From the NCBI GenBank assembly GCA_003222245.1, contig QHVH01000021.1, positions 8,262 to 72,261 of the forward strand: a DNA stretch of 64,000 nucleotides, written 5' to 3'. The notes beneath the pieces are model-generated. The model was not told the origin of the DNA. It saw nothing but the letters and a program-made list of their open reading frames with translations, and ran no database searches. Below, piece by piece: positions 15,089 to 34,409 of this stretch. This stretch comes from Blastocatellia bacterium AA13 (GTDB taxonomy: Bacteria > Acidobacteriota > Blastocatellia > UBA7656). Numbering within the stretch: the stretch's first letter is position 1; every line of letters begins with the position of its first letter. A program made the position numbers and the translations under genes.

Positions 15089-15095
15089 TAAGACA

Positions 15096-15893: not shown

Positions 15894-15927
15894 ACTGATC
15901 GGTACTGGTACTCCCGGCGTTCTTATT

Positions 15928-16118: not shown

Positions 16119-16155
16119 TTAGTTCTTAATGCTGAAAACCATTGGAGGATAGAAG

Positions 16156-16941
16156 ATGACCGCATCAAGTTTTGACCGCGACAACCAGCAGAAATGGAGC
16201 GAACTGTTAGCGCAAGCAGTTTCTCAGCCCGGTTTGATCCTTAAAGCTTATTCAGCTTTCTGGGGTTACTCGCTCGGAAATCAAATGGCAGCGCTCTTGC
16301 AATGCAGGCTCAGGGGCATCGAACCCGGCCCGATTGATACATATAGAGGATGGCTCAACAAAGGCAGGCAGGTTCGCAAGAGCGAAAAGGCAATCTGGCT
16401 TTGCATGCCGCTCACCCGCAAAAAGGCCAACGACGAGACCGGAGAGGAAGACCTCTACATTAGCGCCTTTGTTTGGAAGCCGCGCTGGTTCGTTCTGTCG
16501 CAAACCGATGGCGAGCCGGTGCCGATGCCCGAAATGCCGGAATGGAACAAGGAGCGCGCCCTAACCGCGCTTGGCATCGAAGAGATTCCCTTCACTCACA
16601 CAAACGGCAACACTCAGGGGTTTTCGCGCGGGAACAAAATAGCAATCTCACCGCTTGCCGCCCTCCCGCATAAAACTCTCTTTCACGAGTTAGCGCATTC
16701 GATTCTACACGCGAGCGAAGCGGAGATTATCGATTCAGAGCGGACGCCCAAGAGCTTGCGGGAAGTTGAAGCCGAGTCCGTAGCGATGCTGGTTTGTGAG
16801 TCGCTTGGGTTGTCATGCGCCGAATATGCGCGCGGCTACATTCAAGGGTGGCTTGAGGGCGAATCGATCCCCGAGAAATCCGCGCAACGAATCTTCGGAG
16901 CAGCCGACCGGATTTTAAGAGCCGGTCGAGCCAGGAACTGA
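16156..16941 (+). CDS. ardC: ArdC-like antirestriction protein (ssDNA-binding N-domain plus zincin metalloprotease)
   Basis: N-terminal 'YSLGNQMAALLQCRLRGIEPGPIDTYRGWLNKGRQVRKSEKAIWL' is typical of the ArdC N-domain. HExxH motif 'HELAHSILH'. RBS 'ggagg' precedes the ATG. Confidence 0.85.
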   Translation: MTASSFDRDNQQKWSELLAQAVSQPGLILKAYSAFWGYSLGNQMAALLQCRLRGIEPGPIDTYRGWLNKGRQVRKSEKAIWLCMPLTRKKANDETGEEDLYISAFVWKPRWFVLSQTDGEPVPMPEMPEWNKERALTALGIEEIPFTHTNGNTQGFSRGNKIAISPLAALPHKTLFHELAHSILHASEAEIIDSERTPKSLREVEAESVAMLVCESLGLSCAEYARGYIQGWLEGESIPEKSAQRIFGAADRILRAGRARN

Positions 16942-17026
16942 AACCGATAGCCGCCCGCTTCCGAACCCGGACGCAGCGCCAATCACTGACGAACGAAGTA
17001 ATCACCGTACGGAAATCATGAGTTAC

Positions 17027-17246
17027 ACAGCTTCTCTTCAAATTCGCCATGGGAGTAACCCTTCGAGAGAAAAATTCGGCCTCTCTCAAGTAAGGCGCTT
17101 GCGCCTTCAGGAGAACGGGTCGCGGAACCTACGGGGGGAGCGCTACCCAACTGTCACGGTGCGTCGGCAGAAAGCCGTAGAGCCATGGCGGATTGGACAG
17201 ATGAAGGAAGCTGCAAGGCTCCGCTGGATGGCCACCGGCGGAGCCT
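17027..17246. promoter_or_regulatory. Structured region in the 487-bp ardC-ssb spacer
   Basis: Long-range inverted repeat 17027-17052 / 17183-17214 (about 25 pairs). Local palindrome 'aaggcgcttgcgcctt' at 17092-17107. Hairpin 'aggctccgc..gcggagcct' at 17216-17246. A tandem 10-mer 'aacagaggcg' x2 lies just downstream at 17264-17283. Confidence 0.35.
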
Positions 17247-17428
17247 GCCCTTTGACATCGACAAACAGAGGCGAACAGAGGCGAACTGATCCGAGATGTA
17301 CCCGAGTTCGGCAATCCCTCGATTATCAACGAGAGAGCTTATTGGCATCAGGCTTGCACAACTAATGGCTGGAAGTTGTCAACGTCCGGCCCAAACTTTC
17401 CACGTCAGCAACCATAGGAGAAACTAAC

Positions 17429-17827
17429 ATGTCCACCAGCTTTAACAAGATTGCGATCATTGGCTACCTTGGCCGAGACCCTGAGCTGCGCTACACCCCA
17501 GACGGCACGCCCGTTTGTAACTTCTCAGTGGCGACTACCGAGAAACGGAAAGACAAGTCCGGCGAACTGCAAGAAAACACCACCTGGTTTCAAGTCGCGC
17601 TGTTTGGCCGGCGAGCCGAGGTTGCAAAAGAGTACCTGTCCAAAGGCAGCCACGTATGGCTCGAAGGCTCACTGGCGTTGAGTCAGTGGACGGACAACGA
17701 GGGCGCAACCCGCGCCAGCCTCGAAGTCCGAGCCACGGACATCAGATTCCTGTCATCGTCCGGCGAGAAAGCTTCAGCCGCAACCGCCGCCGCTACATCG
17801 GCCACGGACGAAGACGTTCCTTTCTAA
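17429..17827 (+). CDS. ssb: Single-stranded DNA-binding protein
   Basis: OB-fold signature 'NKIAIIGYLGRDPELRYTPDGTPVCNFSVAT..TTWFQVALFGRRAEVAKEYLSKGSHVWLEG' and an acidic tip 'DEDVPF'. Confidence 0.95.
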   Translation: MSTSFNKIAIIGYLGRDPELRYTPDGTPVCNFSVATTEKRKDKSGELQENTTWFQVALFGRRAEVAKEYLSKGSHVWLEGSLALSQWTDNEGATRASLEVRATDIRFLSSSGEKASAATAAATSATDEDVPF

Positions 17828-17890
17828 AATATGGAAAACCAGAGAACCCAGGAGCCGGGCACATCGCTCGGCTTCTGGCCCAAATTTTTC

Positions 17891-17921
17891 GCGGGACAGT
17901 TTCTGGCCGAAACTGTCCCGC
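17891..17921. terminator. Perfect 13-bp stem-loop after ssb
   Basis: 'gcgggacagtttc-tggcc-gaaactgtcccgc'. It has no downstream T-tract on the plus strand, though 'aaattttt' lies just upstream. Confidence 0.4.
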
Positions 17922-18024
17922 TATCCAGACAAGGGCAGAGGCACGCGCCATAACTTATGCGCGCGCCGACCCGCGTATTGCGCGTCGTGAACGCCTAGAG
18001 AGATTCCGCTTTGGAGTAGGACCG

Positions 18025-18915
18025 ATGAGTCAAATACCCAATCACATAAACGCCCGACGCTCAAGCCGCGTAAGCCAGGCTTCTGGATTAGCAGAGGCAA
18101 CTGTAATGCTCGATCTCTTCGAAGCTCTCGGCGTGCGTTCGTTCGCTCTCACACTCACCGACGAAACCGGGCATAAGGTAGCCTACCAACCCCACAGAGC
18201 CCTTAGCACGCTCCGCATCGAACTGCTCGGCATATTGCTCAGGGCATTTCAAAAGCGTCTTAATGTCATAGTCAGGCCGCTCGCAGCCCATGCCCTCTCG
18301 CTCGTCCAGCTTGACGATCTGAGTCCGTCGCAGCTTGATCGAGTCAGCGGCTTCTCATTCCTTGTGCTTGAAACCAGCCCCGGAAACTTTCAGGCATGGT
18401 TGGCCGTCAAAGATGCGGACGCAGCAACCATGCGCCGCATCAAGAAAGCAGCGGGAGCAGACCCGAGCGCAAGCGGCGCGACGAGAATCGCCGGTTCATA
18501 CAACTTCAAACCGAAGTACGCTCCGGATTATCATCGAGTACAACTGCAATCCATCGCGCCAAAGCGCACCGTCATCGTAGCCGAGCTTGATAGCGCAGGG
18601 CTCCTTGCGCAAGAGGAACCCCCGCCCTCCGCTCCCGGCCATGCTCCCCGCCTTCGGCGCAAGCATCGGCTATCAAAGTGGCCGAGCTACGCGCGCTGTC
18701 TAGCTGACGCACCTAAGGCGAAGAATCACGAAGGCAAGGACCGCAGCGCTGCGGACTTTATGTTCTGCCTGCTCTCGATTGATAGAGGATGGCCGGTGAA
18801 GGCTGTCGCCAACCAGCTCCTCGTCGAAAGCGAGAAGGCGAGATGCCTCGGCGGTAAGTACGCGCTCTTCACGGCCGAGCGAGCCGAATCGGTCGTCAAC
18901 CGCAATCGTACCTAA
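18025..18915 (+). CDS. RepB-type (RSF1010 RepB-prime-like) DNA primase domain protein
   Basis: 'LNVIVRPL', 'LVQLDDL' and 'FLVLETSPGNFQAWLAV' match my recollection of the RepB_primase family. ATG at 18025 follows 'ggag'. The longest ORF (17656) overlaps ssb out of frame. Confidence 0.65.
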   Translation: MSQIPNHINARRSSRVSQASGLAEATVMLDLFEALGVRSFALTLTDETGHKVAYQPHRALSTLRIELLGILLRAFQKRLNVIVRPLAAHALSLVQLDDLSPSQLDRVSGFSFLVLETSPGNFQAWLAVKDADAATMRRIKKAAGADPSASGATRIAGSYNFKPKYAPDYHRVQLQSIAPKRTVIVAELDSAGLLAQEEPPPSAPGHAPRLRRKHRLSKWPSYARCLADAPKAKNHEGKDRSAADFMFCLLSIDRGWPVKAVANQLLVESEKARCLGGKYALFTAERAESVVNRNRT

Positions 18916-19252: not shown

Positions 19253-20872
19253 ATGGGCTTCCAATTCAATATTGAGCATGCAAGCCTTGCCGGCTGGCTG
19301 ACGCGCCGAGACTTCCCGTTTCCGATTGATGAGTTCGACTGGGGGCCATGGCCTGAGCCTTGGCATCGGCATTATCGACGACGACGCAATCTCGCTCGCA
19401 ATGAAGAGGAGTACGCTGGTACCGGGGAGTGGCGCGCACCACGAGTTCAATTGCACGTGCTGGACGATTTTCTCAAAAGGCTGCCGGATTCCGTTGTAAC
19501 CTCGTCTCCGGAAGATCACGCATTCCTTCGCGACTTGGTAGCCGCAGCTAAGAAAGCCCTTCTGTTTGTTGGTGGAAAAAAAGTCAAGGTGGGAGAGAAG
19601 GAGCAGGAAACTGTCCTCTCCTCTTCCGAAGTCGCACATGTCCTAGGCCCCCTTCGTATTTGGTTCGATGTGCCGTTTTACTTCATGCCGCTTGGAAGCC
19701 ACATTCCGTTGGAGCGCTTCCGAGATTCAACCGACTACACGATGTGGCTCCAGTGTTACGATGACATACGGAAGGGAGTCTCCAAGGACTTACTCGATCC
19801 ATTTCCACCCCTCAGACAATTACTTACTACAGCGCCTTCTATGCCCGTCACCGCGTGTTGGACGTGGAGCGGTGAAGCTGCATTGATACCGAGGGAAAAA
19901 TGTTCGACTGAGCGACTGCTACGACTGGTCCACGAAACACCCCCTTGGCGTCTTTGGCGCGAGTTGAAGCTGCTACACCATTCACAGGCGCCAGCTTTCA
20001 ACCTCCTACAACTCAGCGATCTTCATTTTGGGGCTGGCGCCGTGACCAACCGCAAACTCGCCTGCGTTGAGCAGCACCTCCGCGACCGCATCGACGGAAT
20101 CAGAAAGAATGGAGGGGCGGTGCAACCGGTCATCACTGGCGATCTAATGGACACGCCCAGCCAGAAGAACTTAGAGGAATTCGAGGCCTTTCGAAATCGG
20201 CTCACTGACTACTCCAAGACGCCGGTAATATGTATCCCAGGCAACCACGACATGCGGACGAAGGGTTTTTGGAGGAAGAAGTTGGAGGCGCTCGCGGGCC
20301 TGGAATGGCAGAGTGTAATCGCGGGTGATGTGTCCAAGGTCATATTCCTTTGTTTCGATACCTCGCGAGACGCGAAGCTCGCTCAAGGTCGAATAACTGA
20401 CGATCAGTTCATTGAAGTTGCTACAAAGCTCACTGAGCTGCGTCGCCTGGGCGACTATGCTGATCATATAAGCATAGCTCTTACGCATCATCATCCATTC
20501 TCCAGTAGTGAGGATGAAATCGATACGATTCCTTTCCTTGGAATTCGCGAGGAGCGATTTCTTCGCATGGAGAACGGCGATCATCTCGTGCGCTGGTGTG
20601 CGCGCAATAGTGTTCCGTTGATCCTTCACGGTCACAAGCACCGGCCGAGATTTATCGGTCAGGAGATAGAACTTGAGGGTCGTACGCAACTGGTTCGTGC
20701 CGTGGGTTGTGGCTCCAGTTTAGGAATTGAAAGCAAGCCTCTGTCATTCAATTGGATCACTTGGCAGCCCGATGCGAAACAATGGACGGTCTCTTTCTTT
20801 GCCGATCCTGGCGACGGCAGCGGGTTTCAGGAAAAGCGGTTGGCAATAGGAGGGACGCGTGATGCTGCCTGA
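19253..20872 (+). CDS. Calcineurin-like metallophosphoesterase (CpdA/Icc-like motif set) with a roughly 250-aa unknown N-terminal domain
   Basis: Ordered motifs 'LSDLHFG', 'ITGDLMD', 'IPGNHD', 'LTHHHP' and 'LHGHKH'. Confidence 0.8.
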   Translation: MGFQFNIEHASLAGWLTRRDFPFPIDEFDWGPWPEPWHRHYRRRRNLARNEEEYAGTGEWRAPRVQLHVLDDFLKRLPDSVVTSSPEDHAFLRDLVAAAKKALLFVGGKKVKVGEKEQETVLSSSEVAHVLGPLRIWFDVPFYFMPLGSHIPLERFRDSTDYTMWLQCYDDIRKGVSKDLLDPFPPLRQLLTTAPSMPVTACWTWSGEAALIPREKCSTERLLRLVHETPPWRLWRELKLLHHSQAPAFNLLQLSDLHFGAGAVTNRKLACVEQHLRDRIDGIRKNGGAVQPVITGDLMDTPSQKNLEEFEAFRNRLTDYSKTPVICIPGNHDMRTKGFWRKKLEALAGLEWQSVIAGDVSKVIFLCFDTSRDAKLAQGRITDDQFIEVATKLTELRRLGDYADHISIALTHHHPFSSSEDEIDTIPFLGIREERFLRMENGDHLVRWCARNSVPLILHGHKHRPRFIGQEIELEGRTQLVRAVGCGSSLGIESKPLSFNWITWQPDAKQWTVSFFADPGDGSGFQEKRLAIGGTRDAA

Positions 20873-20984: not shown

Positions 20985-21789
20985 ATGCCCGACTCTGAGG
21001 GGCAGGAGAAGACCCGACTCTTCGCTGTCGCACTATTTGATGTTCTGGGATTCGAAAACCTCGTTCGATCACAGGGAGTCCTTGAGATTCGCCGCAGATA
21101 TAGGACGCTGATCGATCAGGCCGTCGCGGTGCCAGATGGCCGCTTCTTGAATCTGATCGACGGTGCTATGGTCGTCGGCTACATGGAAAACACGCACGCC
21201 TACTTCAGCGATACGATCCTCCTATGGCAACCGTTGGATCGCCTCTTGGCCCAACCCTTTGTCTCGCGTTGCGCCGATATGGTAGCGGCTGCCTTGCAAA
21301 TGGAAATGCCCCTGCGTGGCGCAATTGCGCTTGGTCCCGCGGAACTGGATAAAGACGCCAACGTCTACCTCGGCGAACCTCTCATTGAGGCTGCAAGGCT
21401 CGAATCTCAACAGGAGTGGATTGGGGCAGCGTTCGGGGCCTTTTTCAATGTGGCCACCCTGGATGGCAGAGATGTCTACGCGTGATGTGGTGCCCTATCG
21501 CATTCCTCTGAAAAACGAGGCGGCGCGAGAAGAACTGTGCGGTTCTTTTGCAATCAATTGGTGCCGAAGAGTAGGAGCAGGCGCAATACCAATTCTGGAA
21601 AGGCTTCGCGACAATCTGTCTTCAGATGCAGAGTCAATTCGGCGGAAGTATGAGAATACAATTGCATTTGTGAGCGAGACTGAGCGCTGGCTCGCTTATG
21701 TCGAAAAAGAGAAACTCTCGGGATTTCGGATGGTGAGCCCAGAAGAGGTCGAGCGCGATGGAATAATCGATCCTCTCATCCTCGAATGA
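20985..21789 (+). pseudogene. Cyclase-like paralog C1, frame-shifted
   Basis: The first frame carries 'ALFDVLGFE', 'AYFSDTILLW', 'MPLRGAIALG' and 'YLGEPLIEAARLES..WIGAAFG', ending at 21485. The homologous C-terminal part ('DVVPYRIPLKNE..') continues in the +1 frame to 21789. Deleting 13 nt restores the frame. Confidence 0.6.
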
Positions 21790-21876
21790 ATCCGAGCCTC
21801 TCATATGAGGTTGGCCCGCATCGCCGGACCGTGAGTGCAGCGTTGCGAAAGCCGCTTAGAGGATCAGAAACAAGCA

Positions 21877-22683
21877 ATGGGACCGCGAGCTACCATCCCG
21901 TCCGACGTTGTTGCCGACGTGCTAACTGCTTCACGTCGGCGTTGTTGTGTCTGCTTTGCACTTCGAAGTGACGATACCGAGAAGAGGGGCCAAATCGCGC
22001 ACCTTGACCAAGACCGATCGAATAACTCTAAAGACAACCTTGCGTTCCTCTGTCTCGAACATCACGACCAATACGATTCGAAAACGAGTCAATCCAAAGG
22101 CATTACAATGCTTGAAGTGAAGCGCTACCGCACTTATCTCTACGAAAGTCTCGCGTCTCTGCTTGCTAACCCGCCCTCACCGTCATCTGCGCCTCCAAGC
22201 CCGATGTCAGTAATCCCCGTACGCCTCCATCTATATAGAACGGAAGCTGAGGCTCTCAACTATTCGCCTCGCACTGCCCTGGTGCGTTTCAGCATAACCA
22301 ATCTTTCGGACGACTTGCTAAAACTCGTGAGCCTCATAGTACGGGTACTCGCGAAGAACGCAAAACGTCGATTTCGATTGCCGGCCGTTGGTGCGCCTCA
22401 CGATGAATATAAGCTTAGCGCCGATCTCTCCGTCGGAAATGTTGTGGAGATCTTGGACGATGTTCGACATCAGTTCATTTTGAAGCCGCGCGAGTCGGAC
22501 GCATTTTCTCTGGCTCTATTTGGAAACGAGGGTTACGAATACAAAATCATAATAGTTTGTGCTCTAGAGTCCATCGAACACCAAGAGCGAGGGCGTTGGA
22601 CGACTGAGACTCAGCCAATAACGATTTCGTATCCAATCAGAACTGTCGAAGGCTATCGAGACCATGGAAACCTATCCGACTGA
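21877..22683 (+). CDS. HNH-like zinc-finger protein with an unknown beta-rich C-terminal domain
   Basis: 'RRRCCVCFAL..GQIAHLDQDRSNNSKDNLAFLCLEHHDQYDS' (Cys pair, His, Asn, Cys-x2-His-His). The likely start is the ATG at 21877; the longest ORF starts at 21835. Confidence 0.5.
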   Translation: MGPRATIPSDVVADVLTASRRRCCVCFALRSDDTEKRGQIAHLDQDRSNNSKDNLAFLCLEHHDQYDSKTSQSKGITMLEVKRYRTYLYESLASLLANPPSPSSAPPSPMSVIPVRLHLYRTEAEALNYSPRTALVRFSITNLSDDLLKLVSLIVRVLAKNAKRRFRLPAVGAPHDEYKLSADLSVGNVVEILDDVRHQFILKPRESDAFSLALFGNEGYEYKIIIVCALESIEHQERGRWTTETQPITISYPIRTVEGYRDHGNLSD

Positions 22684-23686
22684 AATGACCGTGACGGCGC
22701 CTTGTGCCAACTGCGGTAGCCATGTTTCGGTGCCGCTTCCCATCCAATTAGAATTGATCCACGCAGATTTCATTGCGAAATGGCCGGCGTCAAGACTGGA
22801 AGACACTATGTGCGGAAGCTGCGGCGCCGTCTGGCCACTGGGAGAGATGCCCTGTGTATACTGGGGCGATGGATGGGCTGCCCTCACTCTGGATGGTCCT
22901 CGTACCGGCATCGAGATCCTCACTCAAATCGCTAACTGGATGCCTGTACATAGATTCGGAAGCGCCGGCTCCCCGTTTATCGTCCGTGTCTTTGACTCAC
23001 TGAAGGATTTAGGATACGTTCTCAAGCATCCCGAATGCTCCGTCTTTCGTGAAGACCTCAAAGGACGAGTAACCCGTCACTGGGACGACGAGGTTCTGGC
23101 GCTCATTGACATCTCAGACGCAGCGTTGGAGGGCAGAGTGGAATGGCTCAGCTATGTCATCTTGGCCGGGGTAGTCCAAGACTATCCTGAGTTCTTCTTC
23201 ATTTCCCAGATGCGTAATGCGCTTGAACTCACAGCCCTGGCAAGCGGCGATGAATCACTCCCCATCTCTGCGGACGGAGCGAGTACCGGCTTAGACGAAT
23301 ATAACCAGATGGTAAAGGCTCTTGAACCTCATCGCCCAGTTTCTGAATTGGATTCATACCACATATGGTATGATGCGCCGCTTGATGAGAACACGGAACG
23401 GCCGATCGAGGGAAGCGTAACTCGCCTCATTCGACAGTCACCGCCCAACATCGACCTATGCAAGGTCTGGCTCAGGATTCTTGTTGCCGGGGCATTTCTT
23501 AGGCACGAACTCACGAAACGGAAACTACCTGCGACCCAGCGAGCCAAGGAATGGTTATGTGAGGAGAAGTTGCGTGCACGATGGCCGCATCTGGCGGTAG
23601 CCGAGCGGACAAAGCTTGGTGCGTACTTTCAAGAACTGACCGGAAGAGAGCTGAAGGACGTCTATGGACTGGACTCGCGAGTCTAA
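22664..23686 (+). CDS. Zinc-ribbon (CpXC-like, two CxxC pairs) protein, otherwise unknown
   Basis: 'CANCGSHV' and 'CGSCGAVW' within the first 55 aa. A 20-nt overlap with the upstream gene suggests coupling. Confidence 0.5.
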   Translation: METYPTEMTVTAPCANCGSHVSVPLPIQLELIHADFIAKWPASRLEDTMCGSCGAVWPLGEMPCVYWGDGWAALTLDGPRTGIEILTQIANWMPVHRFGSAGSPFIVRVFDSLKDLGYVLKHPECSVFREDLKGRVTRHWDDEVLALIDISDAALEGRVEWLSYVILAGVVQDYPEFFFISQMRNALELTALASGDESLPISADGASTGLDEYNQMVKALEPHRPVSELDSYHIWYDAPLDENTERPIEGSVTRLIRQSPPNIDLCKVWLRILVAGAFLRHELTKRKLPATQRAKEWLCEEKLRARWPHLAVAERTKLGAYFQELTGRELKDVYGLDSRV

Positions 23687-23743
23687 AGATACGCTTGACG
23701 CCGTCTTACTGGGCGAGCGATTCCAAACGGTGCCCGGCTCACA

Positions 23744-24961
23744 ATGACTGTTGCTCGGCGCGCCGAAGTGATGAGTTTCGACATGGAATCAACCGACTCT
23801 CTGTTCGAACCCGACGACGATGAAAACTTCGTCTGGTTCGTCAAGAACCATCTCAAGAAGGGCGCGGCCAGCGTCAGGGGCATCACGGAGGCGGAGTATT
23901 TAGCGACTTGCCGTGAACGATGGGACGGTTGCGCGGCGGACAGAGTGTACGCGATTAAGTTCCTAGTAGACCCGCTCGTGCAGCCGGACCTGGTGGCGGA
24001 ACTACCAGACGAGTTCATTCAGCCGGGCGAACCCTTCTGCACCCTTGTAGCCAGAATCGGTTCACGCGGAGAGCTAATAGACGCACCGGAGGACTACACG
24101 CCGCCTTCGTACCCGGGCGTCCACCTAGCGCATATCGTTGCTGGCTCTCCCTCTGGAGGTGTGGTTCCTGATCCGCATGAGCCTACCGAGTATCTCATCG
24201 CCTTTTTGGACGTACTAGGATTCGAGGCTCTTCTGAACCGAATCGGACTTGAGGCACTGACGCTACGTTACCAGCAGTTGCTGTCAGTAGCTCTTAGTCC
24301 GCAATCCGAGTCACGACCGTGGAGTCGCGCCCAGGCAATTGTGAATGGAGAACCAACGCCAACCCTGATGTGGCTTCCCATCCAAACAGCGTATTTCAGC
24401 GATAGCCTACTGCTGTGGGTTCCCTATCATCCGGGCCACGTTGAGGAGTTCTTGAATCGCTGCTCAAGAGTGTTTTGCGATGCCTTGGCGCATGGCCTGC
24501 CCATCAGGGGCGCAATCTCGGCGGGACAAGCTACATTGGATAAGGAGAGGGGTATCTACCTCGGTCTTCCGCTGATCGAGGCGGTTCGCCTGGAAAGCAA
24601 GTCCAACTGGGTTGGTGTCTCCCTTGCAGCCTCTTGGAAGTCTGAGACGCTCCGAATCCCAGTCCCTCCCGACACGGTTTTTCTATACAACCCTCCGCTC
24701 AAGGACGGCGGTAACGCACTGTTTTCCGGTTTAGTACTGGATTGGCCGCGCGCGTGGCGGGAGTCGCGCGAAGATTCCGCTCTCCCGTATCTAGCGGACC
24801 TTTGCCTTCCGGACCTCCTACCGGATCTGAAGGCGAGATACGACGCAGCATCGACCTTCTGGCTGCATTCGGAGAAGAACAGAGATTGGTGCCTGCCGCC
24901 TGGCTGGACACGAGAGACAGTCCGCAGTGTATGGGGCGATGAATCAAACGACGGGATGTAG
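23744..24961 (+). CDS. Cyclase-like paralog C2, with a roughly 150-aa N-terminal extension
   Basis: 'AFLDVLGFE', 'AYFSDSLLLW', 'LPIRGAISAG', 'YLGLPLIEAVRLES..WVGVS' and 'LDWPRAWRES'. Confidence 0.65.
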   Translation: MTVARRAEVMSFDMESTDSLFEPDDDENFVWFVKNHLKKGAASVRGITEAEYLATCRERWDGCAADRVYAIKFLVDPLVQPDLVAELPDEFIQPGEPFCTLVARIGSRGELIDAPEDYTPPSYPGVHLAHIVAGSPSGGVVPDPHEPTEYLIAFLDVLGFEALLNRIGLEALTLRYQQLLSVALSPQSESRPWSRAQAIVNGEPTPTLMWLPIQTAYFSDSLLLWVPYHPGHVEEFLNRCSRVFCDALAHGLPIRGAISAGQATLDKERGIYLGLPLIEAVRLESKSNWVGVSLAASWKSETLRIPVPPDTVFLYNPPLKDGGNALFSGLVLDWPRAWRESREDSALPYLADLCLPDLLPDLKARYDAASTFWLHSEKNRDWCLPPGWTRETVRSVWGDESNDGM

Positions 24962-24982
24962 CCGAGTTAGCCACGAGCAACT

Positions 24983-25708
24983 ATGTCATCTCCAAGCCAT
25001 TCTCATCTTGTCTGCCTTCTCGATGTGCTCGGCTTCGAGAGCCAGTTGAAGGCTCTTGGCCTAGCAGGAATACATGCCAAGTACTCAAGACTAATCGAGT
25101 ACGTTAAGAGGGAGAAGGGCGGCATCGATGTCGTGCCTACGCCCGATGGACACGTTGCGGTAGGCTGGCTCGTCATCGGCAATGCCTACTTCAGCGACTC
25201 GCTCCTGTTTTGGACCCACTACAGCCCAATTACGCTTCCGAGCTTCACGCACTGTATAGCCGAGGCCATTTGTTTTGGGCTTGAGGTTGAATTGCCGCTG
25301 CGCGGAGCCATAGCTGTAGGCGAAGCCATACTTGACGAAGGTAGCGGAGTGTTCTTGGGCGAGCCGCTTGTCGAAGTGGCCCGAACCGAACGTACGCAAC
25401 ATTGGGTCGGAGCCTCCTTTGGTCCGTCTTTTGCCAAGCCGGGCTTCAACGACGGTTTCCAACTGCACACCATCTTGCCATACAAGAGTCATTACAAGGA
25501 CCGAGCAAACGAGTACGCGACCGGAATGACCGTGGATTGGCCCAGGCGTTGGCGTGAAAGCCGGAAGACCGATCCACGACCAACATTGATGGGCCTTGAT
25601 CGTGATCCGGCGTTCTCCACTTATTATTCAAGTACTGAGAGCTTCATCGCGTTTTCCGAAGAGAACCACGACTGGTTTCGCAAGCAAGGCCGTCTTGACT
25701 ACGGCTAA
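24983..25708 (+). CDS. Cyclase-like paralog C3, the minimal 241-aa form
   Basis: 'CLLDVLGFE', 'AYFSDSLLFW', 'LPLRGAIAVG', 'FLGEPLVEVARTER..WVGASFG' and 'VDWPRRWRES'. Confidence 0.7.
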   Translation: MSSPSHSHLVCLLDVLGFESQLKALGLAGIHAKYSRLIEYVKREKGGIDVVPTPDGHVAVGWLVIGNAYFSDSLLFWTHYSPITLPSFTHCIAEAICFGLEVELPLRGAIAVGEAILDEGSGVFLGEPLVEVARTERTQHWVGASFGPSFAKPGFNDGFQLHTILPYKSHYKDRANEYATGMTVDWPRRWRESRKTDPRPTLMGLDRDPAFSTYYSSTESFIAFSEENHDWFRKQGRLDYG

Positions 25709-25849
25709 GCCTGTTTTAACCTTGCACGTTGGCGGAAAAGCGCTCGGCATATTCGCTACGACTGACCAATTCGTGAATCCATCCTGGCGTGTTGCTAGAG
25801 CCCATGGAGTTGTATCTCAAAAAGAAGGGAGTGGACTCTACAGCTCATG

Positions 25850-25865
25850 CTCACACGTGTGAGCG
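25850..25865. terminator. Palindrome between convergent genes
   Basis: 'gctcacacgtgtgagc' followed by 'gctttct'. The stem is short, so this is tentative. Confidence 0.3.
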
Positions 25866-25906
25866 CTTTCTAAAGAAGGCTTACGCGACGCCAACCCACC
25901 GAAGCG

Positions 25907-27229
25907 TCAGCAACCAATGTATAGCAAGCCTGGTGAAAATGATCCAAGAGCGATAGCTTCGTCTGCAACGCAGAAATTGAGGGACTTGCTACCCGGGTGG
26001 AAGCACAATGAGAAATCCGCCTGCCAGGTCGTGCCAGAGCAGACCAGTGTTGGTGCATGGTCTGTGGCAAGGAAGTCCGGGTAGCAGATCATCGCGACGC
26101 AGGTATCCAGCACCCCAGAGAGTACGAATTGTTCAGGGAGAGTCACAATTTGTTCGCGGGCAGCTCGAACGGAGTAACCTTGGAGAGCTACCGGGAACAG
26201 AATTCCAACGACAGGCCCAATTGCCATTTTCGCGATCAATATCTCTTGACGTGACTCGCTCGCAATTGCCAACTGGCCGTGCAGCTTGCCGGTCATACTG
26301 TCTTGAAAGTGACGCTTCCCAAACGTGGCCATGTAAGCCCTCTTGACCGCTGGCAGGAACACTTCGTCAACAAGATGGCCGTAATCTCCAATCTCACACT
26401 TCGGCAGGCAAATCGGGAAATATGCACCGTTCAGGATGGGTGCCAACCGCTCATCGGCTGCGAGCTTGCCAAGCAACATCTTTGACCTCAGTTCGAGGTC
26501 AGCTATATTGCCAAAAGATCCAAGTGTGGAGGACTTCCGACGCAAAGGGGCGTTGGTTGGCTCAATGGACGCCGAAGGAGTGACAGGGGACTGCGTCGAA
26601 ATGAGGAGCTTTTCGCCGACGGTCGACATCCACTGCCGCATGGCTGCTATATCGTCCTCCAGTCGTCGGATTGATTCTCCCGACAGTGTCTTGTAGAACG
26701 AGTTTGCGACGTGGGGATACTGCTGCAGAAGTTGGTCGATCCGCTCCCATGTCATGAGTTGAATCTGGAACAGACTCTGAGCGATGTGCTCCTTGTTTAG
26801 AGCGGCAACGGCCTCATAGGCTCCCGCGGTTCTCTTCGCTGAGGTCATAATGAAGTAAGTGTCTAGGCTAGGGGTTAACGTGCGTGCCCTCCGAACCTCG
26901 GCGTCGATCTCCGCGCGGCGAAGACTCTTCAATGGGCCGCGCAGTTTGCATTGCGCACCTATAATGGGCCGCTCGCCAGATGGATCGAAGATGTCGACGC
27001 CGGACTGGCTCTCACCGCGGTGTCCGTACAGTTCCAGATGTGGACGATTGCAGTGAACGCGCAAAAGCTGAAGGCACAGTTCCTCGAAGTCCTGCTCGTT
27101 TGCGGGCACCGGATAGATCAGGCGGATTGGCGGCACGTCGTAGCGATAGTCGCAGGTGCTCCTGCTGTTGTCCAGGGGCATCGATCCGGCAAACGCGCGT
27201 CTGGTGAGGCGCATCAGCACATCAGGCAT
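25907..27229 (-). CDS. Protein with an N-terminal Mrr-like PD-(D/E)xK nuclease motif and an unknown C-terminal half
   Basis: 'FEELCLQLL..LYGHRGESQSGVDIFDPSGERPIIGAQCKLR' fits the D..(Q/E)xK restriction-endonuclease-fold pattern. Confidence 0.6.
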   Translation of the reverse strand: MPDVLMRLTRRAFAGSMPLDNSRSTCDYRYDVPPIRLIYPVPANEQDFEELCLQLLRVHCNRPHLELYGHRGESQSGVDIFDPSGERPIIGAQCKLRGPLKSLRRAEIDAEVRRARTLTPSLDTYFIMTSAKRTAGAYEAVAALNKEHIAQSLFQIQLMTWERIDQLLQQYPHVANSFYKTLSGESIRRLEDDIAAMRQWMSTVGEKLLISTQSPVTPSASIEPTNAPLRRKSSTLGSFGNIADLELRSKMLLGKLAADERLAPILNGAYFPICLPKCEIGDYGHLVDEVFLPAVKRAYMATFGKRHFQDSMTGKLHGQLAIASESRQEILIAKMAIGPVVGILFPVALQGYSVRAAREQIVTLPEQFVLSGVLDTCVAMICYPDFLATDHAPTLVCSGTTWQADFSLCFHPGSKSLNFCVADEAIALGSFSPGLLYIGC

Positions 27230-27422
27230 GCTCGCGATGGCTTACCGTCTCAGTCTCACAAAGTCAGACCGCTTTGGCCCGCCATGGGTTCTTGCGCGTG
27301 GTGCCAACATTGAGTCTGGTCGTCCTAATAATGGCACAGCGAACACATGAGGCGCGCGAATTGTCCAACAAGTCTCGGGACGCTTCGCAAGTGCGGGTTG
27401 CAGGTCACTCTCCATTCATTGA

Positions 27423-28733
27423 TCAGGGTGCGACACCTCTTGCAATGGCGCGGTCTAGCTTTTCGAAGAACGCTTTCCTGTTGTCCAGGTCTAGAAGAAC
27501 TCTGATAAGTTCACGCGCGCGTTGACCAAGGCGAAGATTCAGTTCTGCTATTGAAAGCTCATCCTGCCCAACCTTTATTGTTCGCTTCGTCTCGTTCCCG
27601 TGAGCTAGTTCGTTTCGATAGCCGTAACCAGCATATAGATCGTTGAACACTGCTTCACGAGAGTCCGGGTCGGCCCCGAGAATGTATGCGCCCCGCAAGG
27701 AGAAACGGTATCGTATTTCTTGCTTAAACCCGCCGAGGAGAAGCGGCTCCATCGCGAGCACTAAATCCATCAAGCGATCATCTTCATCACTTCGTTCGTA
27801 AGCTGAGCTGAATCTTCGAAGCGATAGGTCAAGAGAGTCAGATCGCCGGGTTCGTGATCTCTTGAAGCCGGTCCAACACTCTCTAATCGCATCGGCTTCT
27901 GCGATTGATATAGTATATACATCACCCCAATTCCAAACCGGCGGCTGTTCGCTGTGGGTGCTGTGTCGGCCTCCTTCAAGTGACCATCCGACGACCCTTG
28001 TCAGCACGTCGCTGTAGCCGACGCGTCCCGCCTTGAATAGACGCATTGCCGTACAGAATGCGGTGATAGTCTCGCGGGCGGCACGTCCAGCCGGGACGGT
28101 TTTGGTGCCGCTACTACTTAGGCCGTGCGCTTTCCGCTTTGGGTGAATGACCTCGATAGCGAACCTCACGTCAGTAAGCCGCGATGCCTCGAAGAACCCA
28201 CGTACAGTTAAGAATTCCTCTCTATCATTCTTTTCGAGTCTGCTGATTGCCAAGCCCGGCTCGATCTCAATTCGTTCGTTCGGCGACTCAAATCCGACGG
28301 GCAGCGCAAGATGCCGGACAGTATAGGTCTCAGAAGTGAGATATGACTCGATCTCCCCGTAGAGCTTGTCGAACACATCTACGCGGAAGTCGACTCCTTG
28401 CTGGCGGTCAAGCAGGCTAAAAAACACGGAACGTCGCAACCGCTCACTACCGCCTTCCATTTGCGTTGCCAGCGAAGGATCGCCTTCAATTTCCGCTTGC
28501 ACATCTTGCGCGGCAGCGCTCTCTTCCAGTTGCTCCTCAATTGGCTCCACCCAAATCTGCCATGGGACGTGATGCTTCCAGCCTTGTCCAATCTGGCCCT
28601 CGTCTGTGAGGGTAACAAGATGAGAGACGGCGAGGGGCCTTATCGTTTCCTTGATAGGTTGCAGAAGAGCACAAGCCAATTCACAATAAGCGCGGAGAGA
28701 GTTGTACAGGTTCTTGTTGTGCATCTCTTTCAA
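27423..28733 (-). CDS. Protein with a C-terminal HEPN (Rx4H) motif, Apea-like architecture
   Basis: 'YAGYGYRNELAHGNE' lies near the C-terminus of a 436-aa protein. The N-terminal region is unknown. Confidence 0.55.
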   Translation of the reverse strand: MKEMHNKNLYNSLRAYCELACALLQPIKETIRPLAVSHLVTLTDEGQIGQGWKHHVPWQIWVEPIEEQLEESAAAQDVQAEIEGDPSLATQMEGGSERLRRSVFFSLLDRQQGVDFRVDVFDKLYGEIESYLTSETYTVRHLALPVGFESPNERIEIEPGLAISRLEKNDREEFLTVRGFFEASRLTDVRFAIEVIHPKRKAHGLSSSGTKTVPAGRAARETITAFCTAMRLFKAGRVGYSDVLTRVVGWSLEGGRHSTHSEQPPVWNWGDVYTISIAEADAIRECWTGFKRSRTRRSDSLDLSLRRFSSAYERSDEDDRLMDLVLAMEPLLLGGFKQEIRYRFSLRGAYILGADPDSREAVFNDLYAGYGYRNELAHGNETKRTIKVGQDELSIAELNLRLGQRARELIRVLLDLDNRKAFFEKLDRAIARGVAP

Positions 28734-28910
28734 GTCATGGTCTCATAAATACGACCAGAGCCAAATTGGAAATCATCGGCCGAATGGGCTGACACCATAT
28801 ACTGATAGCGCAACGGCGCCAATCGACAAATGCTTTGGAGCGCCATGAATTTCCCTTGAGATGATCGTAACCAGCGACCGATTCATAGACGCGTTAGGGT
28901 TGGCCCGAAT

Positions 28911-29486
28911 GTGCCCGATGACACCATCAATGCTTTCATGAAAGAGTACATTCCAATTCTGACCGCACTCATTGGGGCTCTTGCTGGCTGGTTGATCTCG
29001 CGATATCAGTTAAGGCGTCAAGAATCGCGGGAGAAGAAGAAACTGATTCTGCAAAAATTGGAAGAGCTTTATGAAGCATTGTCAGGGTTTGTCGAAGGTC
29101 TTGCAACGATTATTCATCGGACCGCCAGAGCGAATCTTGAAGCGCTCGCTAGCAAGTTCATCCCGAAGCATTTGCTGCCGTCGAAGCCTGCCATAGAAGG
29201 CAAAATCGTGTCGGAGGATCGAATAAGAGTCCTTGTGGGCTTCTACGCACCAGAATTGTCTGACGATTGGAATAAGATCGAGGCTGCAAGCGGAGACTTC
29301 TGCGAGATGATGTTCCGATCGACGGCTCAGGGCCTACTCGCAACGGGCGAGGATGATCGGGACGGCGAACAGTCAGTCGAAGGTGGTCTGCCGGTGTTTG
29401 CGCAACTTGACCAGCTTGAAAACGTTTATCGAATGTGCGAAGAAATGAAGAAGAGAGTAGTCGAGATATCTGAAAAGTATAGGTAA
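28911..29486 (+). CDS. Hypothetical single-pass membrane, helical protein
   Basis: TM 'IPILTALIGALAGWLI' followed by charged helical sequence. It lies 67 bp upstream of cyclase-like copy C4. Confidence 0.5.
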   Translation: MPDDTINAFMKEYIPILTALIGALAGWLISRYQLRRQESREKKKLILQKLEELYEALSGFVEGLATIIHRTARANLEALASKFIPKHLLPSKPAIEGKIVSEDRIRVLVGFYAPELSDDWNKIEAASGDFCEMMFRSTAQGLLATGEDDRDGEQSVEGGLPVFAQLDQLENVYRMCEEMKKRVVEISEKYR

Positions 29487-29553
29487 ACACACCGACAGCT
29501 CAGAAACACAAGGGCTTCGATCTAGAACGACACTTAATTGAAAGTCACTCATT

Positions 29554-30127
29554 ATGAACCCAGATGACGGCGAGCTTGTCGTGGCTCTCTTCGATGCTCT
29601 CGGTTTCGAGGATCGAATCGGCCGTTTTTCTCTCGAAGAAATCCACGGCCAGTACAGGGACCTGCTCTCCATAGCTACGAGCAAGGGAAGTCACGCCTTC
29701 TTCGATGCCCGGCCTGCAGGCGGGGGAACAATGGTGCCTTTCTTTGGTTACGTCGACATCGAACAAGACTACTCCTCTCGTCGAGGCGGCACGAGCCGAG
29801 AAGGCCCAGCAATGGGTTGGCCTTGCATTCGGGCGTTCATTTGATAACAGACGTGACGTACCCTTCAGCGCGGACCTCGTGCGACCATATACTAAACATC
29901 GGAAGTCAGGTTATGAGAGCCTACTACCGGGAATTGTCCTGGACTGGCCGCGGACGTGGCGAAAGGAATACAAGACCAGCGCGGTGCCGACGCTTGAGCG
30001 GCTGTCCAATAGCGGTAAGGTCCACGAGTATTACAAGTGCGCGATTGAGTTCGTCAGGGAGTCTGACCGCAATTCAGATTGGTGGAAGACCTACACGGAC
30101 GGACGAGGCAATGCTAAGGATGGCTGA
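29554..30127 (+). pseudogene. Cyclase-like paralog C4 with an internal out-of-frame deletion of the catalytic core
   Basis: The first frame has 'ALFDALGFE' and then diverges. From about 29770 the +1 frame continues with 'PLVEAARAEKAQQWVGLAFG..LDWPRTWRKE'. The 'AYFSD' and 'RGAI' blocks are missing. Confidence 0.55.
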
Positions 30128-30139: not shown

Positions 30140-30775
30140 TTGCCCGAACGGTATCCGACAATCCGCACTGTTTTGACGCTTCGCGATCGGAAGAGAGAAA
30201 GTGAGGCACAGCCTTTTACTATTACCATAAACGTCATGGCTGAAGGCGATCAGAATCAGGCGACCAGGCGATTCAAGAGTCTGACCACATCGAATTGGTT
30301 AGAACCTGATCCTGTGTCTTCAATATTCGTAAAGCTCTCGCAAACTGACGGAAGCATCGGCCCGGTGTCCGGTGAGGATTGGCTGAAGCAATTCCTGTTT
30401 CCTGTATTGAATGAAAGCGTTCCTGAGGAGATTCGTGTGCTCTTCGAAGTGGCGCGCGGGGCACTCGCCTATGGATATTTTTTCTATCCGCTTTATACTC
30501 TGGCTGGCGAACAGTTGTACCGCGTGGCGGAGGCCGCTATATCCGCAAAGTGCGCGATGCTTCCAGCTCCGAAGAAACTATGGACATTCAAACATAAGAT
30601 CGACTTTCTCGTTGAGCGGAACGTCATTCCAAGCGACGAGCTCTCCACTTGGAACGCAATCCGCAAACTCCGCAACATGGCTTCGCATCCCGAACGGCAG
30701 AGTATTCGTCCTCCCGGCGAGATTGCAATGACGATGGAGCGTATTGCTGAGAAAGTGAATAGCTTGTTCGGGTAA
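30140..30775 (+). CDS. DUF4145/HEPN-like protein
   Basis: C-terminal 'FLVERNVIPSDELSTWNAIRKLRNMASHPE' (RNxxxH). The start is uncertain: TTG at 30140 or ATG at 30236. Confidence 0.55.
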   Translation: MPERYPTIRTVLTLRDRKRESEAQPFTITINVMAEGDQNQATRRFKSLTTSNWLEPDPVSSIFVKLSQTDGSIGPVSGEDWLKQFLFPVLNESVPEEIRVLFEVARGALAYGYFFYPLYTLAGEQLYRVAEAAISAKCAMLPAPKKLWTFKHKIDFLVERNVIPSDELSTWNAIRKLRNMASHPERQSIRPPGEIAMTMERIAEKVNSLFG

Positions 30776-31220: not shown

Positions 31221-32543
31221 ATGAAGATGGACAGCAATGATTCAACCGTATCGAAAGCGATATCGGTGATCCACACAAGAGCCGAAGTAATGCCCCCCGA
31301 TTTTACCGCTGAGTTTTCTCTTCCTAACCCGAAGCAGGAAGCCTTCAGCTCTCCCCGCCAGATTTTCATATTCCTCGACGGCACATGGAACGAAGAACGC
31401 GCTCCATGGGGAAAGGTGATACCTACGAATGTGCTTCGAATGTTCCAAGAATTAAATCACAAGACCGTCCATGAACTGAGATCGTTACCTGAAGGAAAAA
31501 ATTCCACTGAAATAATCGGACACTACTATCGAGGAGTCGGAAGCCGTCAGGACAATAACGTAGTAGACCGAAAGTGGTTCGGATTTAATGGAAAAGATGA
31601 AGAGAGAATTCGCGGAGCTGCCTTTGCGGATCTGTACCGCGACTACACGAATAATAATGATCGCATTTACATTCTTGGCTTCAGTCGTGGTGCTGCCAGT
31701 GCTCGCTTGCTGGCACGGGATATCTGTATCTCAGGGCTCCCGCCACGATTGAGGGTCCATACGACTCACTTTCCGAATCTATTGACAGGCCAGATTGAGG
31801 CACGAGTGGATCGTGTCGAAAGGCTGCATGATGATCCGACGGGCGAGAAAAATCACCGCCCAAAAGTTGCGTTCCTGGGCTGTTGGGACACTGTTGATGC
31901 TTTTGTCTTGCCGTCTCGGTTTCCGACTCAGGGATTGATGGACAAAGGCGTCCGCATGCTCAAATCATCGATTCCTGCCCTATTGGGGAAGGAGAGGTTT
32001 AAGGGAGAAGAGAATGGAATTCCCGAAGGAGTCTTGAAGGCCGTACACTGCGTCGCTATTGATGAAACACGACACGCCTTTCTTCCCAGCCTAATGCCTC
32101 ATGCGGATAACGTTGAAGAGGTCTGGTTCCCGGGTGTCCACTCAGATATCGGCGGTGGATACAATGATAGCGGGCTGGCGCAGGCGCCGTATGAATTTAT
32201 GAAGAAGCAACTGATAGCTGCGGCTGACTTGGGGAACCAAAATCTATTCAAGATCAGCGAGCGCCCGAGTTTTTCCTCGGAATTCTGCTTTCATTTTCAC
32301 GGATTGAATACCGGGTTAAAGCGCGCTATGAATGTCTTTGGCTTTGGAACAAGCATACGCAGCATACGCGTGTTAGACGCCAAAGATGGCGTAAAGCCCA
32401 AAATTCATGATTCGCTTAATAAAGTCATGACTAGCGATTCTGTCTACGCCGCTGATACTCGAGACAAGCGTACATGGACAATTACTTATGACCCATACAA
32501 TGTCAGGGAGTTACGACAGGAGTTCGACGTTGTCTCGGATTAA
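31221..32543 (+). CDS. DUF2235 alpha/beta hydrolase (Tle1-like phospholipase fold)
   Basis: 'IFLDGTWNE', 'YILGFSRGAASARLLA' (GxSxG), 'FLGCWDTVDAF' and 'FPGVHSDIGGGY'. Confidence 0.8.
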   Translation: MKMDSNDSTVSKAISVIHTRAEVMPPDFTAEFSLPNPKQEAFSSPRQIFIFLDGTWNEERAPWGKVIPTNVLRMFQELNHKTVHELRSLPEGKNSTEIIGHYYRGVGSRQDNNVVDRKWFGFNGKDEERIRGAAFADLYRDYTNNNDRIYILGFSRGAASARLLARDICISGLPPRLRVHTTHFPNLLTGQIEARVDRVERLHDDPTGEKNHRPKVAFLGCWDTVDAFVLPSRFPTQGLMDKGVRMLKSSIPALLGKERFKGEENGIPEGVLKAVHCVAIDETRHAFLPSLMPHADNVEEVWFPGVHSDIGGGYNDSGLAQAPYEFMKKQLIAAADLGNQNLFKISERPSFSSEFCFHFHGLNTGLKRAMNVFGFGTSIRSIRVLDAKDGVKPKIHDSLNKVMTSDSVYAADTRDKRTWTITYDPYNVRELRQEFDVVSD

Positions 32544-33062: not shown

Positions 33063-34409
33063 TCAGTTGTTGTGGCATATCCATAGCGCATGGAATGTTG
33101 CGTTTGGGTTTTCAGACACATACTGACTCAACGGTTTGTTTTGTCTGGCATGTGAGTGCTGAGAGCATAATATCCCGCTCCAATCCCAGCAATTGGTGGT
33201 GTAAACGCGGTAGGTGATGATCATGACATGATCTATCACGCCGTCATTTTCCCAGTCGGCGAAAATCACGTCGCCAATATCAAGGTCGCAAGGGTAACGA
33301 GTAATGAATCCTCGGCCGCTGTTTTCAACAAAATATCTCAGGGCCCTTGCTTGCGTCCAGCTTCGGGTTTGTCCGGTCTTCTTACCTCCAAACTCGTCGT
33401 ACCACCACAGTCCCCAATTTTTATAGCTATTTCCAAAGCCCTTATTGGTCCAGCCACCCCAGTTGAGCGACTGAGATACGAAATTCGTGCAGTCAGGATC
33501 AAAAATCCTGAAATAGGGGTTCGCGTTGTATGCCTGATTAAAGGCATAGGTCGCGGCAGCATTCCTATCATAATCACAGGTCTGCGGAACGATCGTGCTA
33601 CTGATCTCGGTTAGCGTCGGCCCCGGAGGTATTTGGCTGTAAGTCAGCTCCTCTGGAAAGCAACAGAAACTCGAGTCATCAGCATTTGGATCACACGGAT
33701 AGTATCCATCCGAGTCGCATCCCGTTGAGTCATAGATGGGGTCGTAGCCGGTTTGAACCATTGATGAAGAATTTCGAAGACCTCCGGAGGTTCCTCTGGT
33801 TGACCATTTGGTTCTTGAGACTCCGTGACTCTTCTCAAATACGAACACGTGTTCGACCTGCTCTCCGGCCGGTGGGCCTCCACGATCGATAGAGTAATAT
33901 TGCGTCGTTTCTTCCAGCGCATCCAGAAGCACCTTCTCTCCGTCTCTACGAAGACCAAGCGGAGTAAGCTTTACTTCTACTCTGCTGATTGTCCTTCCTC
34001 GTCTGAAGTTATCTTGAAACACTCTCTGACCGACCGCGATCCGCTCTTCAGCCGATCGCTCTTTTCGAGTCTCGCCATCGAATCGCGTCACTAAAACCTG
34101 GGGTGGGGGTGAGCCGTGGACCTTGATGTTGTGCTCGGCCTCCAACATAGCTTTAGCCTGTCGTGTTAGGGTCTCGATGAGAGCTTGGTCGGCGCTGCCT
34201 TGAATTGAACTGAAGCCAGTCAAACCCGTTTGCCTCATTAAGACTGGGCGCGCCGAATGGTCGGCCGACCCATGCCGCATTAACGGTGTAATCACTACGA
34301 GAGTTATAGAAGCCGAGACTAGGGCCAAACGCCGCCAAATTTGTGGTTGTGTTGCCATTCTAGACCTCCATCCTCTGCAAGGGAGATTCGCACCCCTGTT
34401 GTTGACCAA
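33063..34409 (-). CDS. Secreted protein with a C-terminal putative amidase (NlpC/P60-like Cys peptidase) domain
   Basis: 'DPDCTNFVSQSLNWGGW' and 'GDVIFADWENDGVIDHVMII', with an N-terminal hydrophobic signal. Confidence 0.6.
   Translation of the reverse strand: MVNNRGANLPCRGWRSRMATQPQIWRRLALVSASITLVVITPLMRHGSADHSARPVLMRQTGLTGFSSIQGSADQALIETLTRQAKAMLEAEHNIKVHGSPPPQVLVTRFDGETRKERSAEERIAVGQRVFQDNFRRGRTISRVEVKLTPLGLRRDGEKVLLDALEETTQYYSIDRGGPPAGEQVEHVFVFEKSHGVSRTKWSTRGTSGGLRNSSSMVQTGYDPIYDSTGCDSDGYYPCDPNADDSSFCCFPEELTYSQIPPGPTLTEISSTIVPQTCDYDRNAAATYAFNQAYNANPYFRIFDPDCTNFVSQSLNWGGWTNKGFGNSYKNWGLWWYDEFGGKKTGQTRSWTQARALRYFVENSGRGFITRYPCDLDIGDVIFADWENDGVIDHVMIITYRVYTTNCWDWSGILCSQHSHARQNKPLSQYVSENPNATFHALWICHNN

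Follow-up and report, generated by a model that had tools for sequence, protein, structure and literature searches.

The DNA analysed here, called the window below, is a stretch of 64,000 nucleotides from contig QHVH01000021.1 of Blastocatellia bacterium AA13. It is a conjugative element, in which transfer genes at 6-19 kb are followed by cargo and then by a Dnd cluster at 45-56 kb. The cargo carries four genes, C1 to C4, that belong to one family of small proteins. A preliminary description of the window had taken them for a candidate module of nucleotide signalling built on proteins resembling class III cyclases. Here, we show that this family is large and unannotated, that its predicted fold is indeed that of the cyclases, and that its genes stand alone. 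We tentatively interpret its members as self-contained enzymes acting in genetic conflicts.

Four family members in a mobile cargo

Four open reading frames (ORFs) sharing an ordered set of motif blocks had been reported in the cargo, and both the ORFs and the blocks were found again at the same positions. With each copy in turn as tblastn query, the 64-kb window yielded these four sites only, at pairwise identities of 35-40% (E from 1e-14 to 1e-41). The blocks confirmed in the window copies are [FL]D[VA]LGFE, AYFSD[ST][IL]L[LF]W, [ML]P[LI]RGAI..G, [YF]LG.PL[IV]E[AV].R.E, W[IV]G and [LV]DWPR.WR.

Two of the four copies are broken, as had been noticed before. C1 (20946..21789, + strand) is a pseudogene whose reading frame shifts once, near 21441-21445. 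Frame 3 is open from 20946 (ATG at 20985) to 21485 and frame 1 thereafter, up to 21789; the two halves match an intact orthologue of 266 amino acids (aa; P0205) at 70% and 66%. Three contigs carry the truncated product of 166 aa, and since at least two of these contigs stem from different samples, a one-off assembly error does not explain the frameshift. C4 (29554..30127, + strand) has suffered an internal deletion and a change of frame at about 29773, which leaves two ORFs (29554-29844 and 29705-30127). It matches its intact orthologue (P0170, 246 aa) only over residues 4-73 and 111-239, at 61% and 47%, and lacks the equivalent of residues ~70-127 of C3. This segment includes the hairpin with S71-D72 and the P-L-R-G strand (P105-R107-G108), and C4 is dead because the deletion removes both.

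The two other copies are intact. C3 (24983..25708, + strand) is the minimal member, with 241 aa, and is the protein we modelled. C2 (23744..24961, + strand), whose stop codon lies 21 nt from the start of C3, encodes 405 aa: an N-terminal extension of about 150 aa, the cyclase-fold domain and the family tail. The sizes of the minimal form and of the extension thus agree with the preliminary description. The hidden Markov model of the family covers residues 160-398 of C2 (E = 1.8e-75), and C2 is 61% identical to its orthologue P0139 over its full length, extension included. This type of extension recurs in P0167, P0172, P0179, P0162 and P0361. Used alone as a query, it returned one fragment, again carrying the family domain, and no new partners. 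An apparently split C2 in another contig turned out to be a scaffold gap of N and not a case of decay. In the window, C2 and C3 are hence the only copies that can be functional candidates.

For each window copy, an orthologue elsewhere is more similar than the other three copies are: P0205 for C1, P0139 for C2, P0170 for C4 and many proteins, at 60-86% identity, for C3. Judged by these sequence comparisons, C1-C4 represent ancient subfamilies brought together here, and not a local duplication. Paralogue multiplication among fast-evolving genes, which had been proposed before, does not fit this pattern, since each copy has its own orthologue elsewhere and C3-type proteins are 57-86% identical across phyla.

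Predicted fold and active site

The suggestion that these proteins contain a palm domain of the class III cyclase type was put to AlphaFold2 and Foldseek, using C3, and it stood. A first AlphaFold2 run, on an alignment of 31 close homologues, had a predicted local distance difference test (pLDDT) score of 56 and was discarded. With 75 diverse members aligned, the model reached a pLDDT of 92.6 and a predicted template modelling score (pTM) of 0.90. When this model was compared with the PDB, catalytic domains of class III adenylyl and guanylyl cyclases made up 34 of the top 35 matches, with probabilities of ~1.0, target-normalised template modelling scores of 0.5-0.56 and a best E of 1.4e-4. Among them were Cya2 (2W01), Rv1900c (1YBT/1YBU), Ma1120 (4WP3/4WP8) and the soluble adenylyl and guanylyl cyclases. 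The first GGDEF structure came at rank 36, and the top 50 included neither Cas10 nor mCpol. Viral structures gave weak matches only (E >= 1.4e-2); giant viruses supplied the top two, which are a response regulator and a protein with a guanylate-cyclase domain. A class III cyclase-like palm fold is thus supported by the model.

In the predicted layout, the first ~150 residues form the palm fold of the cyclase homology domain (CHD) and are followed by a tail of ~90 residues with the motifs DWPRxWR and NHDWF. The domain opens with a strand (residues 7-15), a helix (18-43) and an extra strand (46-52); then come a long strand (58-70), the tight S71-D72 turn, another strand (73-79) and a helix (84-101). 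We also aligned the family by hhalign to a CHD profile of four sequences, including three cyclase domains recovered from PDB alignments. The register pairs DVLGF with D(I/L)xGFT, PLRGAI with the R-x-G-I-x-T-G strand, and LGxPLIEAARxE with IGxxVNLAxRxE.

Conservation was computed over 176 members mutually less than 60% identical, with positions numbered as in C3. Ten positions are near-invariant: D14 (100%), S71 (99%), D72 (98%), R107 (99%), G108 (100%), G113 (98%), G126 (99%), E136 (95%), G143 (100%) and K172 (97%). D14 lies at the end of strand 1 and is aligned by hhalign to the first metal-binding Asp of cyclases. From the model, we infer that D72 would be the second metal-binding Asp and that K172, 38 residues past position 134, would be the Lys contacting the gamma-phosphate. 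In cyclases, the equivalents of the acidic pair, of the Arg-Gly and of the distal Lys bind two metal ions and the triphosphate, and an Asn and an Arg serve the transition state of 3',5'-cyclisation. Position 130, the equivalent of this Asn, is Val in 59% of the members, Ile in 28% and Thr in 6%, with Asn outside the three commonest residues, in agreement with the replacement by Ile or Val read earlier from the window. The Arg had been described as kept. In the window copies it is, but across the 176 members R134, its equivalent, is found in only 38%. The positions that would specify the base, mapped only by their spacing from D72 and V130, hold a poorly conserved Ala (46%) and a hydrophobic residue; by this mapping, neither the Lys/Asp pair of adenylyl cyclases nor the Glu/Cys pair of guanylyl cyclases appears to be present. 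Mean-field direct-coupling analysis on the pairing of the hairpin with strand 1 gave a signal dominated by gap and insertion artefacts.

The family thus resembles the class III CHD (PF00211) in predicted fold, in the order of secondary-structure elements, in the strand-1 Asp within D-x-x-G-F, in a predicted acidic hairpin and the R-G strand, and in the helix with the pattern G-x-x-h-h-x-A-x-x-x-E followed some 38 residues further by a Lys. Apart from the Asn and Arg positions, it differs from this domain by being invisible to PF00211, by one extra strand ahead of the acidic hairpin, by its specific tail, and by a minimal form that comes without sensor or transmembrane partners. With GGDEF, Cas10 and mCpol it shares a related RRM-like palm with an acidic hairpin, but here the hairpin reads (Y/h)FSD, and the family has no GG(D/E)EF or GGDD motif and no PF00990 match. 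A role of small palm enzymes in immunity has a precedent in Panoptes (PMC12657218, PMC12657230). Unlike CBASS, type III CRISPR and Panoptes, the family has no PADLOC or Pfam match and no SAVED, CARF or 2TM partner at the loci examined.

Distribution, fusions and genomic contexts

Single-sequence searches with C1-C4 gave no match in Pfam, NCBIfam, PADLOC or PDB sequences, and searches of Pfam and PDB sequences with family profiles and members were blank as well, in line with the earlier view that the family is undescribed. Literature searches found no published description of it, though the absence of matches is no proof that none exists. A word-indexed search with C3 gave 224 homologues; among the 120 listed, almost all have ~240 aa and are 60-86% identical, and they are without names or labelled "hypothetical". 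Among 1.84 billion cluster representatives (50% identity), a profile search retrieved 3,170 clusters at E <= 1e-3, of which 726 at E <= 1e-10. Taxa with family members include Acidobacteriota, WOR-3, Flavobacteriales, Phycisphaerales, Alphaproteobacteria, Thermodesulfobacteriota, Paenibacillus and Bacillus. Archaeal matches are weak and come from Methanogenium (P0356, E = 4.6e-8) and one Thermoplasmatales archaeon. The family is rare in cultured genomes and plasmids, with one match in 72,556 plasmids, and had no match in 50,697 GenBank phage genomes.

Some members are fused to other domains. In plasmid and chromosomal proteins of Bacillus, a GmrSD_N/DUF262 domain is joined to the family domain (hhalign probability 99.3%), and in the protein of Bacillus wiedmannii plasmid p536 (WP_215559167.1, L035:7413-8729) the family domain replaces the usual nuclease half of GmrSD. 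Two metagenomic proteins join a PNP_UDP_1 nucleoside-phosphorylase domain to it (probability 98.3%), and TPR arrays occur on its N- or C-terminal side (e.g. P0307, P0167). In a large subfamily, the C2-type extension and the domain are followed by 300-800 aa of helical repeats with the unit "...FL..(A/V)A.G..(I/L)P..P..LP...". Searches with this long C-terminal repeat region gave nothing in the PDB and nothing in Pfam, save for TPR in a single protein. In most fusion proteins no enzyme other than the cyclase-fold domain is recognisable, which is the pattern of an output module. Cyclase domains for cyclic nucleoside monophosphates (cNMPs) have been described as swappable enzymatic modules of conflict systems, interchangeable with nucleoside-phosphorylase domains (PMC7159879). 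The modules of Kaur, Burroughs, Iyer and Aravind 2020 (PMC7159879) likewise join a cyclase-fold domain to sensor repeats, nucleases and nucleoside-phosphorylase domains. Yet, theirs are canonical, recognisable by Pfam and set within ternary vWA-MoxR or caspase systems, whereas the family is mostly a solo protein of 240 aa. None of the partner genes vWA, MoxR, VMAP and caspase turned up in the loci examined.

We searched for partner genes at 19 loci, considering ORFs of at least 80 aa in flanks of up to 10 kb and ORFs of at least 40 aa within 2.5 kb to either side. No neighbour is conserved among these loci: nothing formed a cluster apart from the gene itself and antisense shadow ORFs of it. 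The family is thus a stand-alone gene, and the idea of a signalling module with a partner, receptor or effector found no support. Each of the seven loci L001-L007 holds only one copy.

Family members are consistently found in toxin-antitoxin, defence or mobile-element regions. They include Gp49/HTH pairs; PLD and PD-(D/E)xK genes with a metallo-beta-lactamase (MBL) fold gene; HicAB, MNT/HepT, Uma2 and NB-ARC; SIR2-HerA with CHAT; and a pPIWI-associated nuclease. On a Paenibacillus chromosome (L042:567-8759), hsdM-hsdS-hsdR, a weakly SMODS-like gene of 252 aa, DUF6602 and, last, the family member follow each other on the same strand in a compact defence island. In a phage-like region with TerL and portal genes (L046:8001-10935), a complete GmrSD gene stands directly downstream of the family member. 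In a viral contig (L032:5539-12826), the member (~8001-8711) lies between the gene of the terminase large subunit gpA and that of a lambda-type portal, with a capsid gene next. This copy is phage-borne, in a moron-like position.

The locus of a C2 orthologue (L037) carries HEPN_Swt1 and a Pycsar-like pair, i.e. PycTM (E = 1.4e-6) and a 272-aa weak Guanylate_cyc protein, at L037:5332-6707 on the - strand and divergent from the C2 orthologue. We considered this PycTM as a link to Pycsar and rejected it: it is paired with a PF00211-like cyclase of its own, and the pair is hence no evidence of a functional link to the family. The family resembles Pycsar in being a cyclase-fold enzyme found in defence islands, one of them holding this pair, but differs from it in having no PADLOC PycC match and no conserved adjacent effector.

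Possible roles and the surrounding cargo

We favour, with a confidence somewhat short of even, the interpretation that the C1-C4 family is a self-contained, cytosolic, probably dimeric and metal-dependent conflict enzyme that converts nucleoside triphosphates (NTPs). Catalysis, dimerisation and biological role are inferred. Like CHDs, the protein would dimerise, and the dimer would bind an NTP with Mg2+ or Mn2+. It would then carry out a nucleotidyl transfer or a cyclisation releasing pyrophosphate, not necessarily the synthesis of canonical cNMPs. The output in the conflict between hosts and mobile elements might be NTP depletion, a toxic or inhibitory nucleotide, or nucleotidylation of a target. 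The enzyme would be carried as cargo of integrative and conjugative elements (ICEs), plasmids, phages and chromosomal islands. A self-contained output enzyme seems the likeliest option because no partner is conserved and because the domain is the sole enzymatic module in the fusions with TPR, helical repeats and GmrSD_N. The broader proposal is more doubtful: it seems possible, though rather unlikely, that these are widespread single-gene immune or conflict enzymes with a cyclase fold, which once triggered would make a non-canonical nucleotide or drain NTPs and need no dedicated receptor.

A number of observations count against a conflict enzyme working on a cyclase-type site. Sequence likeness to cyclases is weak: the family and the cyclase profile align by hhalign with a pairwise E of 0.0018 and a probability of 15%. 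PF00211 matched none of C1-C4 (maximal E of 1) nor any of 31 members (E <= 10), so that membership of this family is not supported by sequence. The preliminary description had matched four blocks to the canonical cyclase blocks. This correspondence stood in hhalign for D14, the R-G strand and the helix block, but not for the second metal site: the cyclase G-D falls on residues ~53-56 and not on S71-D72. D72 and K172 were equated with the cyclase residues solely by their predicted place in the topology, their spacing and their conservation. Without the Asn/Arg pair, the family might have a different chemistry or no cyclase activity at all. The cross-phylum identity of the C3 type is atypical of defence genes, and the association with defence islands is a qualitative judgement on about a dozen loci. 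Finally, in two Acidobacteriaceae genomes of one lineage (L001:8712-10726 and L015), the preceding gene encodes a 430-aa RlmN-like radical-SAM protein, and its end overlaps the C3 orthologue by 4 nt. This is the sole syntenic, operon-like arrangement seen, and it hints at a non-defence role in that lineage.

The main rival to a self-contained enzyme is a signal generator, whose diffusible cyclic or linear nucleotide would be read by a receptor or effector encoded elsewhere, such as a Crp/Fnr-type or host cNMP-binding protein. The cyclase fold and the intact metal and phosphate residues would suit this role, and the PNP_UDP_1 fusion could be an effector activated in cis. Still, we consider it unlikely. 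No receptor or effector is conserved in the 19 loci, and the sole PycTM nearby has its own cyclase. It had been remarked that no CARF, SAVED or cNMP-binding receptor stands beside the window copies; we found none at the other loci either, nor any PycTM or TIR partner of the family. The only candidate receptor seen is a Crp/Fnr-family regulator in the same cargo (37408-38259), but it is 8-12 kb off, and at other loci no neighbour is conserved within 8-10 kb. Conceivable signal degraders are found in the phosphoesterase directly upstream of C1 and the MBL-fold gene directly upstream of one C3 orthologue; yet, these two have unrelated folds and occur once each.

The remaining explanations are less likely than these. 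An enzyme of ICEs or phages directed against host defence, which would make decoy nucleotides, consume the nucleotides of host immunity or otherwise blunt immunity upon entry, has few chances of being right. The window copies do lie just downstream of the ArdC-like and primase genes of the conjugative element, and other copies lie between terminase and portal in the viral contig and in the phage-like region. However, most occurrences are in chromosomal islands of toxin-antitoxin and defence genes, the position in Acidobacteriaceae is stable and syntenic, the search of GenBank phage genomes gave no match, and the cargo includes reverse-strand genes, unlike typical leading regions. A catalytically inert sensor or regulator that binds nucleotides is slightly less probable still. 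It would account for the absence of the transition-state Asn and the poor conservation of the Arg, and conflict systems do include some cNMP-cyclase domains that are inactive (PMC7159879). Against it, both Asp, R107 and K172 are near-absolute among members less than 60% identical, a pattern that fits an active site dependent on metal. It is very improbable that the family is an ordinary enzyme of housekeeping or metabolism found in islands by chance, despite the high conservation of the C3 type and the overlap with the RlmN-like gene in one lineage. The family is patchy across the bacterial phyla at 57-83% identity, which implies horizontal transfer, its flanks are variable, few cultured genomes and plasmids carry it, and two of the four window copies have decayed.

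To our knowledge, Pycsar, type III CRISPR and Panoptes are all built on cyclase-fold or palm enzymes that require a partner effector. The family differs from known conflict cyclases and palm enzymes in four ways: it is invisible to current models, it is without the Asn/Arg pair, and it has its own C-terminal tail and no partner gene. A large unannotated family with a conserved two-Asp/Arg/Lys site, without the cyclisation residues and without a partner, suggests either that the cyclase scaffold supports a new reaction or that nucleotide chemistry is used in conflict in a new, self-contained way. If the broader proposal above is right, nucleotide-based immunity would have a new stand-alone branch, carried among bacterial phyla by ICEs, plasmids and phages, with weak matches in archaea. 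A Pfam or NCBIfam model of the family would annotate thousands of "hypothetical proteins". The natural fusions to DUF262, PNP and TPR offer handles on the triggers, and C3, a soluble protein of 241 aa, can be tested directly. The interest of the family is real, though not extraordinary pending a demonstrated activity or phenotype.

The genes around the four copies are given here by position, which does not imply a functional link to C1-C4. The module for conjugation and establishment (6451-18915) encodes an SLT transglycosylase, a TrbI/TraM-like protein, an AAA_5 ATPase, a VirD4/TraG coupling protein, an ArdC-like protein and a RepB-type primase, and C1-C4 therefore lie in the cargo of an ICE or plasmid, between the T4SS and the Dnd clusters. 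Domain searches confirmed this mobile setting and the defence-like context of the copies. Directly upstream of C1 is the gene of a calcineurin-like metallophosphoesterase (19253..20872, + strand; Pfam Metallophos E = 1e-11), whose best NCBIfam match is the anti-phage phosphoesterase DS9_1 (E = 4.6e-15, below the model cut-off). This gene is paired with C1 only in copies of this same element. Between C1 and C2, on the + strand, lie a weakly HNH-like ORF of 282 aa (21835-22683; HNH_3 E = 0.009, ZorE-like E = 0.0018) and an ORF of 340 aa (22664-23686) with no family match in Pfam, PADLOC or NCBIfam. Two ORFs on the - strand (25907..28733) separate C3 from C4. One, of 440 aa, resembles PDC-S73 (PADLOC E = 6.6e-5) and the N-terminus of Avs2, and the other, of 436 aa, shows in its translation an R-N-E-L-A-H motif at its end. 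Neither is found beside family members in the 19 loci. Upstream of C4, a transmembrane protein (28911-29486, + strand) was considered as a PycTM and rejected, as it is unrelated to it. Past C4, also on the + strand, are a DUF4145/HepT-like HEPN protein (30140-30775; DUF4145 E = 9.6e-5) and a Tle1-like DUF2235 lipase (31221-32543; T6SS_Tle1-like_cat E = 5e-39).

Further along the cargo, an Amidase_6-domain protein is encoded at 33063-34409 (- strand), and another is found near the C2 orthologue (L037:793-4338, - strand). The regulator at 37408-38259 (+ strand) is a divergent member of the Crp/Fnr family (HTH_Crp_2 E = 9e-13), with weak PDB matches over residues 61-267 that include the effector-binding barrel. 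It is the sole gene of the cargo resembling a cNMP receptor, at 8-12 kb from the cyclase-fold genes. The Dnd cluster for DNA phosphorothioation (45372-55564) consists of a DndA-like cysteine desulfurase (45372-46544), a DndE-fused ATPase (50644-52125), a DndD-like AAA_23 protein (52189-54255) and a DndC-like PAPS reductase (54248-55564). A Methyltransf_35 and HATPase_c_3 pair is encoded at 48261-50629.

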